A stretch of 64,000 bases of DNA from an uncultured Candidatus Binatia bacterium (GCA_965242525.1 OZ251459.1:3808001-3872000), one strand, 5' to 3'; counted from the stretch's first letter, positions 12,755-19,770 are shown. Notes: a model not told the origin generated them from the letters alone. Translations and numbers: made by a program.

Positions 12755-12807
12755 TTATCCCCGTTCGTCCTGAGCGTAGCGAAGCGAAGTCGAAGGACGC
12801 GCTTTCC
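12755..12807. repeat. Truncated family A repeat core between convergent genes
   Basis: CCCCGTTCGTCCTGAGCGTAGCGAAGCGAAGTCGAAGGACGCGCTTTCC. Confidence 0.8.
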
Positions 12808-13571
12808 TATTCCTCTTTTCCCTCCTCCTCCTCCGTCTTCCGCCCCACGAAATACACCAGCACGATGGTGAGACCGTAGAGCGCCGTCAACGGCAGCGCC
12901 AGCAGCACCTGCGAGACCACGTCGGGCGGCGTGAGCACGGCGCCCAGCACGACGATTCCCAGGAACGCGTAGGGGAACCGGCGCATCATCATGCGGTGGT
13001 CGATGAACCCGACCCGGGCCAGGAAGACCCCCGCCACCGGCAACTCGAACACGACCCCGAAGGCCAGCATGAGCCGGGCCGAGAAGGACAGGTACTCGCT
13101 CACGCGGATGGCCGGGCGGACGTCGAGATGCTGGTACTGGTCCAGGAAGAACCGGTACCCCACGTCGAATATGACCACGTAGCAGAAGCCGGCTCCGAGC
13201 ACGAAGCACACCGTGCCGAACCCTACGAAACCCCTGGCGTAACGCCGCTCGTGGCCGTAGAGGCCGGGGGCCACGAACCTCCAGGCGTGCCACAGCAGCA
13301 CGGGCAGCGACACGAACAGCGCGGCCACGAACGCCACCTTCAGCTTCGCGAAGAACGCCTCCGCCACGCCGGTGCCGATGACGGTGAGGCCGGAGGCCTC
13401 CAGCCGGAGCAGCGGCGCGGTCATGAAGGCGATGAGCCGGTCTGCCACGGCGTAGCAGAGGAGGAACGCCGCCAGCACGGCCGCAGAGCACCTGATGAGT
13501 CGAGAGCGGAGTTCCTCCAGGTGCGCCGTCAGCGGCATGCTGGCGTCGTTCGACGGGTCAGCCATGTGCAA
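12807..13571 (-). CDS. tatC: Twin-arginine translocase subunit TatC
   Basis: HLEELRSRL, FVAPGLY..ERR, FELP, LTPPD. Confidence 0.93.
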   Translation of the reverse strand: MHMADPSNDASMPLTAHLEELRSRLIRCSAAVLAAFLLCYAVADRLIAFMTAPLLRLEASGLTVIGTGVAEAFFAKLKVAFVAALFVSLPVLLWHAWRFVAPGLYGHERRYARGFVGFGTVCFVLGAGFCYVVIFDVGYRFFLDQYQHLDVRPAIRVSEYLSFSARLMLAFGVVFELPVAGVFLARVGFIDHRMMMRRFPYAFLGIVVLGAVLTPPDVVSQVLLALPLTALYGLTIVLVYFVGRKTEEEEGKEE

Positions 13572-13622: not shown

Positions 13623-13913
13623 TCACTCTTTCCGGGCGGGGCCGCCCGCGGGAGACGGAGGCGCGGCATCGGCTTCCGCGCCTTCCCCGGCCGCTTCTCC
13701 GGCCGGCTTGGCGTCCGCGTCGCCGGTCTCGGGCGGGGCCTCCAGCTCGTCAGCGGCGGCCTGCATTTCCCGCTTCACGTCGTCCGTGGTGCGGCGGAAC
13801 TCGGCGAGACCCCGCCCCAGGGAGCGTGCGATCTCCGGCAGTTTCTTGGGCCCCAGGACGATCAGGGCCACCGCCAGGATCAAGAGCAGCTCCGGCATTC
13901 CGATACCAAACAT
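13623..13913 (-). CDS. tatB: Twin-arginine translocase TatA/TatB subunit
   Basis: [30 protein letters not shown], directly upstream of tatC. Confidence 0.8.
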
Positions 13914-14086
13914 TGCGACTCCCGGGGGCGCGTGCAACGGACCCGCGCGGCGTCGGCAGACGCTCCACGGTCCGTCCGTTACGGGCCACTAGGCTAGGAC
14001 ATTTGCGGGAGCGAGTCAAAGAGCTGCCCTACGAGGGATTTGATTGACAACCCAACCCCTTGTAAGCTGGAAGCAGGAGAGAGACC

Positions 14087-17000
14087 GTGCCGAACTCGTT
14101 GACGGATCCCATGGAAGTATTCACCGGCGTGCTTGAAGACAAGCGGCCGCTGGTGCTGTTCGCCGGCCAGAGTCTCGACACGGCCAGCGACGCCATACTT
14201 GGAACGCTCCTTGCCCGACTTGGCTGCGCGGAGCGCGGCGCTGGATGGCGAGCAGCCATCGAGCAGGGCATGGGTGCATCCGACATGGAGTGGCTGTCCG
14301 AACGGTTCGACCGAAGCGTGCCATCCGACCCCGCCTCCCGAATTTTCGACGTCCCATGGAGCGCGGTGTTCACCTCGTCCATCGACCCCCACTTTGCGCG
14401 GCGGTTCGAGACCCGCGGGCGGCAGCCCGAGCCGGTGCTTTCCAAGGATGCCTACCCGAGGGTTCCTCGTAGCCGTTCGAGGCCGCCAATCCACTATCTC
14501 TTCGGTAAAGCCGACGAAACCGTAGATGAGGCGCGGGCGCCCGGAAGTCAAGGCAGTCTGACGCGCCGCCTCAGCCTTCACGCCACGGCGCTGGTCAACC
14601 GTATTGCGGAAACTGCGACTGTAGGCGGCCTGGTGGTCATAGCCGGCTACGACCCGATTGGGGATTGGCTGCCGATGGACTCCCTGTTGGCGCCCTTGTA
14701 TGGCCAGGCCGGCCCCAAGGTCCTGTGGTTCGGCCGTGCCGACAAACCGGACTCGGACCTCGCTGACGAGATGCTGGTGTCGGGGTCGCTCGTGGTGACG
14801 CCGGAGACCCTGACGAGCGCAATCGCACAGCTCGAACTCCGCGGCGTGCTCGATGTTGCAGGATCCGCTGCCCCGGACGAGCCGGGCATGGTGTCCATCG
14901 CCAAGGGGGCGGTACTGGACATCACGCCTGCCCTGCGGCTCCGAGTGGAGGCTTCGGCGTCCATCGTCGATGACACATGGACGGAAGAGCCGGAGTCACT
15001 GGACGGTTTCGAGTTGTATGGCGCCTTTCGCCGATTCCACGGCGCCCTTGGCAACTTCAGGTCGCTGGTGGAGGGGGTGGCGCGCGGGTTTGCGGTAGAA
15101 CGCGAGTTCGAGCGTACCCTTTGGAATACGGTGGAGAAAAAGCTGGATCGGCTTCGGCAACCCGACTCCGACGACGTGGTCGTCCTGCACGGGCAGTCAG
15201 GCGCCGGAAAGAGCATCGCGCTTGCGCGGTTGACCCGGAGGATCCGTCGTGAGCGGTGCCTGCCTGTTCTGGCGGCGACGAACCGGATACCCCATCCCCA
15301 GGACGTCGAAGCATTCTGTCAGGAATCCGAGCGCTTGGGGGCCACGACGGTTCTGGTCTGTGACTCTAGCCAACCTCCACAACGCTATGAGGACCTGGCG
15401 TCCGCCTTGCGGAGTCGTGGACGGCGGTTGCTCATTGTCGGCACGTGCTATCGCCTCCCCGACAGGAGCCGTTCGAATCGACTAGTAGAGGCGCCAGCCC
15501 ACGTCTCGGAGGCCGAGATGGCGGCGTTCACAGAACTGTCGAACAGGTTCGACTTGCCCCCTGACATCGCTGATACCGACACGAACTCCATTTTCGCCAT
15601 GCTGTACCGCCGATTGTCCGTCTCGCGCCATCGGCTTGCGGCTGGCGTGTCATCGGAAGCGCGAGCGGCCGAAGGTATGGTGCGGGAGCGGGCGAGGCAT
15701 GCGCCGCGGCCCGCCGCCAACCTTTCTCCCATCGCACTACAGCTAATCAAACTGGGCATCCTCAGCGAGACTTCGCCCTTGTTCGAAGATGATGAAAGGC
15801 TTGCAGCTTCGGGCTTGGACGAGGCTGGACGGTTGATCGATTACGTCATGGCCGCTGGACGGCTGAACAGCGCCATGCCTGTCAACCTCCTGTTTCGGGT
15901 TCTGGGCCACGCCAGCGGATTGCACTCGGACCAGTTCAGCCATCTTCTGGGGGATCTCGATCTCTTCCGTTGGAGACAGGATGAAGAAGGGTCAGACTTC
16001 CTGATCGCTCCACGCATACAACTGGAGGCCGATCTCATATGCAGACGGCGGCTGACGCCGGAACAGGAAATCGAACGGTTGATCGAATTGATCCGCGGTG
16101 TCAGACCTGGAGTGGATCGAGGGAACGAAAAGTCATTCCTACTCGACCTGATGTTCAAGCTGGATCGTAATGGACCAAGAAAAGATGCATACGGTTGCGG
16201 CTACCTGCGGTTTGCCAACGCGCTCAAGGAATTGCGGGAACAGAACGGCATATTCGATGCGGACATCGTCTTACGTGAATGTGCGTTACGATGCCATGCC
16301 GTAGTCCGATCACAAAGCGATCCTGACGTAGATGGAACCGACGATGAACGGCTGGCCATCCTGGATGAGGCCCGCGATACCATCGAAACGACCCTGCGTA
16401 CGATCGACGAGAGGAAACTTCGGGTATCCAGAAGGACGAAGCAAAGCCTCGTTACGGAGCGTTCGACAATATACGGACTCCTCGCCGTTCAGCGTGCACA
16501 GTCCGGCGGCGGGGATTTCTGGTCGGACTATCTCGCCGCCAGAGTAGCGAGCGAGACAGCCCTGGGACTGGGCGGGAACACCTACCCCATCGACATCGCC
16601 CTCTGGACGGCGACGGACGTGCTCGAATGGAAGAAAGGCGAACTGTCGGACGCACAACGAGCCGAGGTATTGGCCGACCTGTATGCAACCATCGACTATG
16701 CAGACTGTGTGTTCAGGGTGAAGGAAGTGTTAAAGGTAAATGCACCGAATACCAAGGCCCCGAACGGCTTGCAGGAAGACAGTGGACCGGACGAGGGCTC
16801 GGTCGCTCCGAATCAAAAGGACTATCTGAAGCGTCGCACCCGTGTTGCATACGCGTTGGGCGACGCGAGAATGAGCAATGAAACGCTGGCCGCATTGGAA
16901 AGCGTCGCACCCGAGGCCGCAACCTTTCTCATTGCAAGGCGGCAGGCAGAGGCAGTCTATGGGAGCGCGCCGCCTTTCAACGGAGAGACCCGCAGCATCG

Positions 17001-17581
17001 CAGCGAAGGCGGCCGACTACCTGTCCGGTCGAAACGACGCCGGAATCTCGCTGGACGACCGTTGCCTCCGTCTCTGGCTCAGGTTGCGATGGGCGCAGGC
17101 AACCGGCGAGCGCCTGATGTTCGACCATCGCGGCCGTACTCCCGCGGACACGGGTCAGATCACCGAGTTGCTCAAGGTCGTAGGCGACCTCAATGAACAG
17201 GCCGGCGCCGATGCACGCAACCGGGAACGGTTCCTCGAAGCGGTGTTGTGCTGGCTCCTCAAAGATACCAGCCACGCGATCAAGATGTGGCAGTCGTTGT
17301 CGCAGGACACCGATTATGAGGACCCATCACGCGTGAAACGATGGCTCGTGCAGACGGACGCCAGCGGTTCTCCGCGTCGATTCCAGGGACGGGTCGAAGC
17401 GAAAGGCGAGGACAACTGGCGAGTTCGAGTGGAAGGCATCGGGAGGCCGATCCTGTTGCGAGGACAGGATTTCCCGAACGAGGACCTAGCCCATGGCCGG
17501 GAACTGCGGGAGATTGGCATCGCCTTCAGCTACACCGGCCCCATTGCTGATCCGCTCTCACGTCCAATGCGGGGACGATGA
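14087..17581 (+). CDS. SIR2-like (degenerate) + STAND-type P-loop NTPase + helical repeat + C-terminal OB/CSD-like protein; putative defence sensor
   Basis: SIR2-like motifs LFAGQS, WSAVFTSSID, YLFG, IAGYD; Walker A GQSGAGKS (15191-15214); Walker B VLVCD; beta-rich tail ending IAFSYTGP; codon style differs from flanking genes. Confidence 0.7.
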   Translation: MPNSLTDPMEVFTGVLEDKRPLVLFAGQSLDTASDAILGTLLARLGCAERGAGWRAAIEQGMGASDMEWLSERFDRSVPSDPASRIFDVPWSAVFTSSIDPHFARRFETRGRQPEPVLSKDAYPRVPRSRSRPPIHYLFGKADETVDEARAPGSQGSLTRRLSLHATALVNRIAETATVGGLVVIAGYDPIGDWLPMDSLLAPLYGQAGPKVLWFGRADKPDSDLADEMLVSGSLVVTPETLTSAIAQLELRGVLDVAGSAAPDEPGMVSIAKGAVLDITPALRLRVEASASIVDDTWTEEPESLDGFELYGAFRRFHGALGNFRSLVEGVARGFAVEREFERTLWNTVEKKLDRLRQPDSDDVVVLHGQSGAGKSIALARLTRRIRRERCLPVLAATNRIPHPQDVEAFCQESERLGATTVLVCDSSQPPQRYEDLASALRSRGRRLLIVGTCYRLPDRSRSNRLVEAPAHVSEAEMAAFTELSNRFDLPPDIADTDTNSIFAMLYRRLSVSRHRLAAGVSSEARAAEGMVRERARHAPRPAANLSPIALQLIKLGILSETSPLFEDDERLAASGLDEAGRLIDYVMAAGRLNSAMPVNLLFRVLGHASGLHSDQFSHLLGDLDLFRWRQDEEGSDFLIAPRIQLEADLICRRRLTPEQEIERLIELIRGVRPGVDRGNEKSFLLDLMFKLDRNGPRKDAYGCGYLRFANALKELREQNGIFDADIVLRECALRCHAVVRSQSDPDVDGTDDERLAILDEARDTIETTLRTIDERKLRVSRRTKQSLVTERSTIYGLLAVQRAQSGGGDFWSDYLAARVASETALGLGGNTYPIDIALWTATDVLEWKKGELSDAQRAEVLADLYATIDYADCVFRVKEVLKVNAPNTKAPNGLQEDSGPDEGSVAPNQKDYLKRRTRVAYALGDARMSNETLAALESVAPEAATFLIARRQAEAVYGSAPPFNGETRSIAAKAADYLSGRNDAGISLDDRCLRLWLRLRWAQATGERLMFDHRGRTPADTGQITELLKVVGDLNEQAGADARNRERFLEAVLCWLLKDTSHAIKMWQSLSQDTDYEDPSRVKRWLVQTDASGSPRRFQGRVEAKGEDNWRVRVEGIGRPILLRGQDFPNEDLAHGRELREIGIAFSYTGPIADPLSRPMRGR

Positions 17582-18453
17582 CCCCCATCGAGCTCAGCAA
17601 CCTCTACCAAACGCTTCGCACTCGCGTTTCCATCCACTGCCCGGACGGTTGCGCCGAGATCTCACTGCGGTTGCCATCCGATTTCGACGGTGAGTTGGCG
17701 TTCTATCGTCTGGTCATGTGGGGACATGCCCTCGTCAACGAAGCGGCTAGGGTCCCCCTTGCCTTCCTCGCGAAGTTGCCGCCGCTCAAGGCCAACCGTT
17801 CGTTCCGCGACGAAACGTCCCGATTGCGAACCTACCTGACCCACAACCTGGGTCTCAACAAGGCGCGGGATCAGGGGACTCACGCCTTCGTTCATCGTTG
17901 GTTCAGGGAGGCGTGCGAGTACGGCAGTCCCGAGGGCGCCGCCCATTACGCCGCTTGTTGTGACTGCCTCGCCGGCAGGCTTCGGGAATTGCTCGACGGC
18001 GCGATTGCGGCCTGCGACCTGCTCGATGATCCGGAGGATGGTCCAAGACTCGTTGCCGACCTCAGGGGACGCCTGGAAGTCGATTGGGAAGCGTCTCGTT
18101 TCGATCCGCTGGTCGAGAAGTGCTCGGTCCGATTGGGCGATCCGGGCATCAACCTGAAGGGGCTCCGCGGAATGCATCTCGAAAAGTGGCGCCAAACGCT
18201 TTCTCAAGCCGACGAGAACGAACGCGAGCGCGTCCTCGAACAGCGAATCGAAGCCGATCTTCTGGCGGCCATTGGCGATGCCCTGCCCCGGACCGTCCGG
18301 GAGAAGCTGCAACGGGTCGCCGCAAGCGCCGAGGCGACTGTCGCGGCGCTGCTCCTGTTGCGTGAGGCCCGGCGCCTCGGCGCGATGTCGCTGCCGCAGA
18401 TCATCGATTTCGTCAGTTCCCAAGCCACGGGACTTGACGGATCCGAAGCCTGA
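17578..18453 (+). CDS. Hypothetical helical protein with RxxxxH (HEPN-like) motif
   Basis: ATGA overlap with upstream gene; R84-TYLT-H89 (17827-17844) with upstream Glu55. Confidence 0.6.
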   Translation: MTPIELSNLYQTLRTRVSIHCPDGCAEISLRLPSDFDGELAFYRLVMWGHALVNEAARVPLAFLAKLPPLKANRSFRDETSRLRTYLTHNLGLNKARDQGTHAFVHRWFREACEYGSPEGAAHYAACCDCLAGRLRELLDGAIAACDLLDDPEDGPRLVADLRGRLEVDWEASRFDPLVEKCSVRLGDPGINLKGLRGMHLEKWRQTLSQADENERERVLEQRIEADLLAAIGDALPRTVREKLQRVAASAEATVAALLLLREARRLGAMSLPQIIDFVSSQATGLDGSEA

Positions 18454-18494
18454 GCTTGCCGTCTGCTCGTAATCGAAGTTTTATGAAATAACTC

Positions 18495-18507
18495 CAACCC
18501 ATTGATT
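18495..18507. promoter_or_regulatory. IHF-consensus site in AT-rich insert boundary
   Basis: CAACCCATTGATT matches YAANNNNTTGATW. Confidence 0.4.
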
Positions 18508-18735
18508 TTACTAACTTTTGTTACCATCAACCGTCCTTTCTCCTCAAAGGGAAAGTGACGCCGCGGGTGCCGTAGGAAGCACATGGGCGCGCCCGGATCC
18601 GTTCAGGGTCAAGGTAGGGGAGAGAGGAAACGCCGTCTTGGGCCATCCTGAGAGACTGGGAGGTGTCTCTGGGGGTCAGGGTTGGCTGCTAGTACTTTGA
18701 CCCCGCGTGCCGCATGGTGGTAAAGTAGGCGGAAC

Positions 18736-19770
18736 ATGCCTCGTTCCGCCATCGTGGCCGACCCCGTGTTCCTGAAGCACGAACCCGGCCCGCACCATCC
18801 CGAGAACCCGCAACGTCTCAGGACCCTGCTGGACCTCGCCCACGAGGTGGCGGAGGGGAGCGCGGACTTCGAGTTGCTGCCGCTGCGCGCCGCGGTGCAG
18901 GAAGAACTGGAGTTGTGCCATGGCGCGGGCTACATCGACCTGGTGCGCTCCACCTCGGAGCACAACCGGTTCGCGCTGGACGGGGACACCGTCACCTGCC
19001 GGGACTCGTTCGGCGTGGCGCTCATGGCGGTGGGAGGGTTCCTGCAGATGCTCGACGCCCTGGCCGCGGGCGATTACCGCAACGGCTTCACCCTGGTCCG
19101 GCCTCCCGGCCACCACGCGCTGCGGGACCGGGGCATGGGGTTCTGCCTGTTCAACACCGCGGCCATCGGCGCCCGGTACTTGCAGAAGGTCCACGGCGCC
19201 CGGCGGGTGGCGGTGGTGGACTGGGACGTGCACCACGGCAACGGCTCCCAGGACGCCTTCTACGACGATCCCTCGGCGCTGTTCCTGTCCACGCACCAAT
19301 ACCCTTACTACCCCGGCACCGGAGCGGTGGACGAAGCGGGCCGCGGCAAGGGGGAAGGTTACACCGTGAACGTGCCCCTTCCCGCGGGGTGCGGCGACGA
19401 CGAGTACTTGGCGGTGTTCCGGGAGGTGGTGGTCCCGGTGGTCGAAGGCTACGGCCCCGACTGGCTGCTGGTGTCCGCGGGCTTCGATTCCCACCGGGCC
19501 GACCCCCTCGGGGCCATGAACGTCACCGAGCAGGGCTTCGGCGTCATGGCCGACGCGCTCCTGGAGCTTGCCCGGAAGCACGCAGGCGGCAGGGTCGCGT
19601 TCCTGCTGGAGGGCGGCTACGACCTTTCGGCCCTCCGCAACTCCGTGGCCGCGGTGCTGGAACGCATGAAGTCGGACGGGACCTCCGCCGCGGACGTCCG
19701 GGACGCCGACGGAGGACGCATCGACGCGCGCATCCGGGAGGTGCTCCGGGTCCGGGAAAGGTACGGGTAG
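18736..19770 (+). CDS. Histone deacetylase-family amidohydrolase
   Basis: [39 protein letters not shown]. Confidence 0.92.

Follow-up and report, generated by a model that had tools for sequence, protein, structure and literature searches.

A degenerate SIR2-fold STAND protein and its separately encoded partner form a candidate two-component conflict system in an uncultured Candidatus Binatia bacterium

In the usual description, a bacterial STAND (Avs/NLR-like) sensor is a single protein with an effector of its own. Avs5 (AVAST type 5) is reported as a single gene that combines an active PF13289 SIR2 NADase with an nSTAND3 module (PF20720) (PMC11897194; 10.1101/2025.07.08.663546), and replacement of the catalytic Asn of EfAvs5 (N141A) abolishes defence (PMC11897194). 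A different use of the same fold is described for SAMD9, whose SIR2-like domain has a structural rather than a catalytic role and in which a separate tRNase domain does the killing (PMC13600222); in SAMD9/SAMD9L and in a bacterial 'Avs9', this tRNase module, AlbA_2, is fused in cis (PMC13600222, PMC12680541). Here we describe a two-gene cassette in a 64,000-nucleotide stretch of DNA (hereafter the window) from an uncultured Candidatus Binatia bacterium (GCA_965242525.1 OZ251459.1:3808001-3872000). Gene 1 encodes a large protein (P0001) with a degenerate SIR2-like domain and a STAND NTPase, and gene 2 encodes a small all-alpha partner (P0002). We consider it probable that the cassette is a two-component STAND conflict system of the anti-phage type, in which the gene 1 protein is the sensor and switch, its dead SIR2 domain is a socket and the gene 2 protein is the effector arm.

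The cassette is most likely an unnamed two-protein relative or variant of the Avs5/SAMD9-type STAND sensors, with a pseudo-SIR2 adaptor. It resembles Avs5 (EfAvs5 and PaAvs5) in its N-terminal SIR2 fold, STAND NTPase and helical repeats, and both are mobile defence-type genes. In contrast to Avs5, however, it has no PF13289 match, the catalytic Asn and His are replaced, the NTPase is of the nSTAND5 type and a second gene is obligatorily linked; thus three features that define Avs5, namely nSTAND3, an active SIR2 effector and a single-gene make-up, are absent. With SAMD9 and Avs9 it shares the order of a non-catalytic SIR2-like domain, a STAND NTPase and a TPR-like region, and the assignment of killing to another module, but here the candidate effector is a separate protein with an unrelated all-alpha fold, and P0001 has no Pfam match to AlbA_2, the N-terminal tRNase of SAMD9/Avs9. 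The combination of a STAND NTPase and a non-catalytic N-terminal domain with a separately encoded effector is also found in the Aravind-type NTPase conflict systems, in which the adaptor is a Death-like/EAD domain rather than a degenerate SIR2 fold. No family of PADLOC-DB 2.0.0 matched P0001 or P0002 at E<=1, and 16 distant relatives gave only weak P-loop noise (E>=0.004). Literature searches on nSTAND5, other nSTAND families, novel STAND or conflict systems and the combination of STAND, HEPN and SIR2 returned, from the collection searched, no paper describing the pair and none describing nSTAND5. With respect to PADLOC, this agrees with the preliminary description of this DNA, which did not recognise the arrangement as a named system; we retain its wording of a candidate undescribed system.

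That description, made from the sequence alone, had reported two open reading frames of 1164 and 291 amino acids coupled by an ATGA overlap, written in an atypical codon style and placed between tatB and an HDAC gene, and had read the large product as a SIR2-like domain with an apparently dead effector followed by a Walker A/B NTPase. Our analysis agrees with each of these points, including the coordinates. The overlap of the stop and start codons implies translational coupling, and the two genes are real rather than chance reading frames because they have 356 and 136 homologues, respectively, in database searches, many of those of gene 1 being full length at 51-90% identity.

The two genes form a conserved pair that travels together. 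Among 61 related genomes, P0002 is present in 5, all of the same genus (5/28, own genome included; 0/33 in other families), and P0001 is present in exactly the same five, while the other 56 hold neither gene. In an even draw of the phylum, the pair was found in 1 of 301 genomes, the window's own. A profile scan of metagenomes with the small protein yielded 16 loci, two of which (L022 and L027) begin at a contig edge and were left out; of the 14 with upstream room, 13 carry a gene 1 homologue immediately upstream, down to 24-30% identity for both proteins, and the exception, L015, has a truncated gene 1 remnant. The reading frames overlap by 4 nucleotides in L012, L013 and L023 and by 1 nucleotide in L014, are adjacent in L018 and L020, and in L021 and L016 the first in-frame start of the partner lies 11-20 nucleotides downstream. 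Of the 120 partner clusters listed, at least 37 have the same longest contig as one of the listed gene 1 clusters. A single-sequence search of genome contigs returned only one close relative.

The N-terminal domain of P0001 clearly has a SIR2 superfamily fold, as judged from its structure model. The protein starts directly with this domain (first helix from residue 8), and residues 1-340, folded with a 60-row alignment, gave a predicted local distance difference test score (pLDDT) of 85.2 and a predicted template modelling score of 0.77. In a wide VIA-align search of this model against ~48,000 representatives of the PDB, sirtuin or SIR2-domain chains made up 22 of the 23 top rows. The best matches were Thoeris SeThsA (Z 16.2, root-mean-square deviation 3.6, 234 aligned residues) and Kongming KomC (Z 16.0), followed by EfAvs5 (SIR2-STAND; 9jap; Z 14.1, model residues 3-324), the AVAST5 filament (9nc9; Z 13.3, model residues 7-256), Sir2-NAD (Z 13.0), HerA-Sir2 (Z 11.1-11.5) and the SIR2-like domain of human SAMD9 (Z 10.9), whereas unrelated Rossmann folds remained at Z <=8.3. 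ThsA and KomC differ from the domain described here in being active NADases that are triggered by small molecules and lack a STAND module.

Comparison by hhalign of 13 family N-domains with 11 canonical SIR2_2 domains from related genomes (probability 84.6%, E 6.9e-6, 163 columns) allows the catalytic positions to be read. Four motifs mark the domain in P0001: FAGQS (25-29), TSSID (96-100), LFG (138-140) and GY..DW (187-194). The TTNxD motif of SIR2_2 aligns to T96-S97-(S/A)98-I99-D100, so that the catalytic Asn becomes Ser or Ala at 98; LHG aligns to L138-(F/L/Y)139-G140, with the catalytic His replaced by Phe139 in the window protein; and GYSxxDP aligns to G187-Y188...D193-W194. The position of the GAGxS NAD loop reads xGQx in all 13 members, and both the catalytic Asn and the catalytic His are replaced in 13/13. 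Because this replacement is family-wide, we read the SIR2-like domain as dead; P0001 likewise has no match to PF13289 at E<=1 in Pfam. Even so, conservation within the protein is highest in this domain, above all in residues 91-150, and an invariant Arg-rich set (R73, R76, R112, R128, R161 and R172) lies in it.

Two further observations concern this domain and its relatives. The Arg-rich segment formed by residues 91-138 (window 14360-14500; FARRFETRGRQPE...RVPRSRSRPP) is the most conserved stretch of P0001; it occupies the place of the NAD lid or small domain of canonical SIR2 and lies outside the modelled interface with the partner. Canonical SIR2_2 (PF13289) genes are common in the genus, occurring in 16 of the 41 relatives searched, own genome included (G000:C1:2707987-2708442, L042). 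Many of these domains lie within open reading frames of more than 1000 amino acids, and classical SIR2-bearing defence-type proteins therefore coexist with the degenerate form.

Structure prediction supports docking of the partner on the dead SIR2 domain. The N-terminal domain of P0001 was modelled with P0002 in three runs and three controls; scores of 0.01, 0.84 and 0.83 were obtained for the runs (median 0.83) and of 0.00 for the best control, with a pLDDT of at least 71 for the partner and a stated run-to-run contact agreement of at least 0%. The modelled interface involves residues 33-40, 73-85, 105-109 and 241-251 of the gene 1 protein and residues 63-68, 148-165 and 206-226 of the partner. 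The contacts with the lowest predicted error join R73, R76 and V78 of the former to L67, D154 and L158 of the latter, all of which are invariant, and R73 and R76 are kept in 60/60 rows of the gene 1 alignment. On either side of the deep division within the family, the basic segment of gene 1 and the acidic patch of the partner (LLDDPEDGPRL in P0002, xIExDExR in distant members) are both retained. The predicted docking fits the idea, put forward in the preliminary description, that sensing and killing are split over two proteins.

The partner belongs to a large family. A full-library profile search returned 625 clusters (50% identity) at E<=1e-3, 253 of which pass E<=1e-30, and most members have ~300 amino acids, yet P0002 has no family match in Pfam, NCBIfam or PADLOC, and P0001 has none in NCBIfam either. 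The P0002 model is confident (pLDDT 85.8) and consists of 13 helices. The protein carries the R84-x4-H89-N90 motif, which is invariant in 62/62 rows of one alignment and in 36/36 rows of a second that includes members at 22-25% identity, and which reads LRT[YF][LV]xHN[LM]D; in the model, R84 is placed where a helix reaches its C-terminal end, and H89 is in the loop that follows. The residues that remain invariant down to 22-25% identity are E39, F42, E55, R84, H89, N90, W108, P118, G187, R197, W204, I224 and P237. With its all-alpha fold, invariant R-x4-H and conserved polar residues, the partner resembles the HEPN RNases (RnlA, HepT and the HEPN domains of Cas13/Csm6) and has the R-x4-6-H that these enzymes require. 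On this basis we tentatively suggest that the partner may itself cut RNA through the RxxxxHN centre, an assignment in which we place limited confidence.

Fusions within the family bear on the role of the partner. A TIR_2 domain follows the partner module in P0316 (66 bits) and P0364 (79 bits), PNP_UDP_1 follows it in P0255 (75 bits) and a LuxR-type helix-turn-helix (HTH) in P0353; the R...HN motif is kept in the TIR- and PNP-fused relatives and lost only in P0353, in which R84 and H89 are gone. Since domains of the TIR and PNP kinds are typical effectors of immune systems, the fusions place the partner family in the effector arm of conflict systems. They also imply that the module can serve as an adaptor and need not be a nuclease. 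It is possible, though in our view unlikely, that the cassette is a defence system in which the partner lacks catalytic activity and links or restrains the STAND protein as an adaptor or regulator, with damage done by a recruited host factor or by non-canonical chemistry in the Arg-rich SIR2-like pocket. The attachment of the module to TIR twice, to PNP once and to a LuxR HTH once, the lack of R84 and H89 in the LuxR-fused form, the lack of any HEPN family or fold match and the location of the highest gene 1 conservation in the Arg-rich residues 91-150, outside the modelled interface, would all suit such an adaptor. However, a mere scaffold would not usually show the invariance of E55, R84, H89 and N90 seen across 22-90% identity, the motif is retained in the relatives fused to TIR or PNP, and the canonical SIR2 catalytic residues are missing in 13/13 members.

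The C-terminus of the partner resembles the tail of the CCA-adding enzyme (PF13735), which recurs there in 39 of 91 relatives and in 6 of 8 distant ones, all below the cut-off; we treat this likeness, which may point to RNA binding, as a lead only. Searches with the VIA wide mode returned fumarase/ASL-type bundles of a generic helical kind for residues 1-154 (Z<=5.8) and bundles resembling sigma factors or the Lon alpha-subdomain for residues 169-235 (Z<=5.8). We do not claim a new fold for the partner: the weak fold matches come from the whole-protein model, with both halves together. A sequence-profile search of the PDB with P0002 gave two chance matches only (E>1), and the nearest Pfam-bearing Atlas cluster was RnlA/HEPN_RnaseLS, at a weak 0.76. 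Six partner relatives of 365-394 amino acids (P0286, P0350, P0271, P0284, P0294 and P0319) carry an insert of ~90 residues ahead of the RxxxxHN motif, and two insert-bearing relatives show weak matches to RNA_pol_A_CTD (helix-hairpin-helix).

Behind the SIR2-like domain, P0001 carries a P-loop NTPase with Walker A and Walker B motifs that are invariant or nearly so (G369, Q370, S371, G374 and K375 of Walker A are invariant). By profile matching, this NTPase is assigned to STAND/nSTAND5 (PF25199), which scores 31.2 bits in P0001, under the Pfam cut-off of 34. The family exceeds the cut-off in 4 of 8 distant gene 1 homologues (38.9-47.8 bits), is the best NTPase family in 9/9 proteins scanned and is the precomputed annotation (PF25199.2) of a database entry identical to P0001. 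Besides nSTAND5, P0001 has only weak AAA and NACHT matches in Pfam, and nSTAND3 (PF20720) left a single trace among the 9 proteins (12.8 bits, E 0.095, in one distant homologue). A sequence-profile search of the PDB with P0001 found weak P-loop matches only (E>=0.036) and no sequence-related solved structure. The long helical region that follows is the presumed sensor; TPR matches in it, from relatives and C-terminal fragments, are all sub-threshold. The last ~90 residues show five beta-strand-like segments when read by residue pattern, and in the Atlas this tail has a feature similarity of 0.85 to S1CSD-TOTE/DUF7017 clusters. The tail has no Pfam match, and PF22707, PF22708 and PF22860 are absent from the 13 C-terminal fragments scanned, so that the OB-like nature given to the tail in the preliminary description, or an S1-CSD nature, is a lead only. 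A likeness to TOTE conflict systems, as defined in 10.1101/2025.09.15.676423, would lie in a possible TPR plus S1/CSD sensor (the Atlas lead of 0.85); no TBP gene, which is a TOTE feature, was noticed in general neighbourhood scans of the pair loci.

Taken as a probable two-component conflict system, the cassette may work as follows. The helical C-terminal region of the gene 1 protein would recognise a trigger derived from the invader, and the nSTAND5 P-loop module would then drive oligomerisation dependent on nucleoside triphosphate. The SIR2-fold domain, having lost the NADase Asn and His, would serve as a docking platform for the gene 2 product rather than as an effector, as the complex model suggests. 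The gene 2 product would most likely act through its own E55/R84-x4-H89-N90 centre, possibly as a HEPN-style RNase that its C-terminal helical module, similar to the CCA-adding-enzyme tail, may aim, and in some relatives the same module may instead carry a fused TIR or PNP domain. A more far-reaching version, which we think quite unlikely, holds that the degenerate SIR2 domain is a dedicated effector-docking hub and a trans-encoded bacterial counterpart of SAMD9. In this version, the STAND oligomer formed on activation would cluster a separately encoded RNase of unrecognised fold with the RxxxxHN centre, directed to tRNA by the helical module similar to the CCA-adding-enzyme tail. Relatives would swap in TIR or PNP on the same adaptor, and an invariant Arg-rich pocket left in the dead SIR2 site (R112, R128 and R130-R132) could also read a nucleotide or RNA signal.

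The cassette is horizontally acquired and mobile. The G+C content is 0.57-0.62 within the pair and 0.66-0.70 outside it; at third codon positions (GC3) it is 0.71 and 0.74 for genes 1 and 2, compared with 0.89-0.94 for the neighbours, and it is 0.66-0.74 across the four intact genomic copies. In the five congeners that lack the pair, the spacing between TatC and the HDAC gene is 440-557 base pairs (5/5), whereas it is 5165 base pairs in the window; because this gap is short in the pair-less congeners, we regard the pair as an insertion of ~4.7 kb (Table 1). No direct or inverted repeats were found at the insertion ends, the window contains no tRNA gene, and promoter and terminator consensus scans at the locus were uninformative. 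Within a single genus the pair occupies three chromosomal sites: beside tatB (the window and G023), between dciA and a class II ribonucleotide reductase gene (G010), and between TRAP and ABC transporter genes (G022 and G006).

Several of these neighbourhoods contain genes of conflict or mobility. In this genus the site next to tatB is a variable hotspot: in G023, the pair has beside it, on the downstream side, a type III restriction-modification system (L008:2449-8791; a 1027-amino acid ResIII/RE_endonuc protein and a 1001-amino acid N6_N4 methylase), which is followed by low-GC3 genes, one of them encoding a HATPase_c protein and another a protein of 325 amino acids without a family. A type I restriction-modification system is directly upstream of the pair in L019, a C5 methylase and a resolvase are near it in L013, and a phage-type integrase is near it in L020. 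Upstream of the distant pair in L018 (L018:912-6341) are genes for an HNH_2 endonuclease, a DinG-like helicase, QueD (PTPS) and a radical-SAM protein, a combination reminiscent of a cluster for DNA modification or defence of the 7-deazaguanine type. The flanks in the window, G010, G022, L012 and L014 are housekeeping genes.

In G006 the cassette has decayed: gene 1 is broken into three pieces, which a deletion has joined to partner residues 142-290 (L011:9053-17501), and the site is an island of small low-GC3 genes that include a Phd antitoxin, DUF5615, HepT/MNT and an aspartyl-protease-like reading frame. This setting raises the question of whether the pair is a toxin-antitoxin-like addiction cassette, in which a constitutively toxic small protein is neutralised by the large one and a mobile segment is stabilised instead of phages being sensed. 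In favour of this, the small gene comes second in a tightly coupled operon, the two proteins are predicted to bind, and toxin-antitoxin genes are co-located in G006; yet the size of the large protein, a 1164-amino acid NTPase that has conserved Walker motifs and an extensive helical region, is out of proportion for an antitoxin, both genes decayed together in G006 without leaving an orphan, and the architecture parallels the Avs5 and SAMD9 sensors. We regard this explanation as extremely unlikely.

A function outside immunity is another alternative, in which the cassette would be a STAND module for signalling or regulation in the cell (to sense stress or metabolites, for example) that is mobile by chance. 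A 2026 survey of STAND proteins counts 589 clades, 198 of them defence-associated, and describes clades that switch between defence and non-defence roles (10.64898/2026.01.04.697583), a flexibility that would permit such a module; the housekeeping flanks of the window, G010 and G022 and the existence of a LuxR-fused partner variant would also suit it. We nonetheless consider it very unlikely, given the sporadic distribution (5/61 and 1/301), the foreign codon use and the decayed copy, the restriction-modification, toxin-antitoxin and integrase neighbours, and the TIR and PNP fusions typical of immune effectors. In addition, Pfam scans of P0001 and its distant homologues revealed no DNA-binding or output domain in the gene 1 protein.

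A number of observations weigh against the two-component conflict system that we favour, or against parts of it. Protection against phage and toxicity, like trigger sensing, oligomerisation and RNase chemistry, are inferred, and the docking interface is a model. Defence or mobile neighbours occur at only ~6 of ~14 informative loci by plain count, with housekeeping flanks in the window, G010 and G022, so that the defence-island setting holds for some loci (restriction-modification, toxin-antitoxin or integrase genes) and fails for others, and no relative of the pair was found in viral contigs. The presumed sensor region is fairly evenly conserved and not diversifying, save for the hypervariable loop at residues 871-900, and the nSTAND5 score of P0001 itself lies below the cut-off. 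One of the three complex runs reached only 0.01, and the calibration of the tool, whose mark is reached by 58 of 80 solved complexes and by 2 of 110 mismatched pairs, is only roughly valid here because our own alignments were supplied. As to the HEPN-like RNase of the preliminary description, its RxxxxH motif proved invariant, but family and fold searches gave the HEPN assignment no further support: no HEPN family of Pfam matches P0002, 8 distant partner relatives or 91 relatives, Foldseek with the whole P0002 model found nothing in the PDB at E<=1e-3, and the VIA wide search with the same model reached a top Z of 5.8, with no HEPN chain among the 50 rows listed. With no HEPN family or fold match, it is the motif that carries the RNase proposal. 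The TIR and PNP fusions, finally, are as compatible with the partner being an adaptor as with its being an effector.

Table 1. Features of the cassette and its surroundings in the window (positions counted from the first nucleotide of the 64,000; amino acid numbers refer to P0001 or, for the R84-x4-H89-N90 motif, to P0002)
Feature	Position	Strand	Description or basis
Gene 1 (P0001)	14087-17581	+	GTG start, 1164 amino acids; SIR2-like domain, nSTAND5 NTPase, helical region and beta tail
Gene 2 (P0002)	17578-18453	+	ATG start, 291 amino acids, all-alpha partner
AGGAG ribosome-binding site	14075-14079	+	Read from sequence; 7 nucleotides 5' of the gene 1 GTG
ATGA stop/start overlap of genes 1 and 2	17578-17581	+	Read from sequence
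Degenerate SIR2-fold domain, residues ~8-260	14108-14866	+	Structure model and hhalign
Conserved segment R73-I85 (RFDRSVPSDPASRI), predicted docking surface	14303-14341	+	Complex model
STAND P-loop NTPase core, residues ~339-470	15101-15496	+	Motifs and PF25199
Walker A, GQSGAGKS, G369-S376	15191-15214	+	Alignment
Walker B, VLVCD, V422-D426	15350-15364	+	Alignment
Long helical region, residues 471-1075, presumed sensor	15497-17311	+	Conservation profile
Hypervariable indel-rich loop, residues 871-900	16697-16786	+	Conservation profile
C-terminal tail, residues 1076-1164	17312-17578	+	Beta-rich by reading of residue pattern
R84-x4-H89-N90 motif, LRTYLTHN	17827-17847	+	Alignment
TatC	12807-13571	-	Upstream neighbour
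TatA/B-family gene	13623-13937	-	Upstream neighbour
HDAC-family gene	18736-19770	+	Downstream neighbour
Inserted segment carrying the pair, ~4.7 kb	13938-18735	.	Between the TatA/B-family gene and the HDAC gene

Beyond the genes listed in Table 1, a ketoacyl synthase gene also lies downstream of the pair, genes for biotin carboxylase and BCCP lie farther upstream on the + strand, and the remaining nearby genes of the window are housekeeping genes. Right after the partner stop and within the insert, ~70 nucleotides at window 18460-18530 are AT-rich, and the intergenic DNA of the host is GC-rich.

If our reading is correct, an effector domain has decayed to a pseudo-enzyme and has been reused as a socket for a separate and exchangeable effector arm. 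The parallel with human SAMD9 is direct, since that protein, too, has a SIR2-like domain without catalytic function and relies for killing on a separate RNase module. The partner family is large (625 clusters) and has neither a Pfam, NCBIfam or PADLOC name nor a solved relative; a study of its members could bring a new effector or adaptor fold into the catalogue of defence proteins and clarify the function of degenerate SIR2 domains in immune NTPases.

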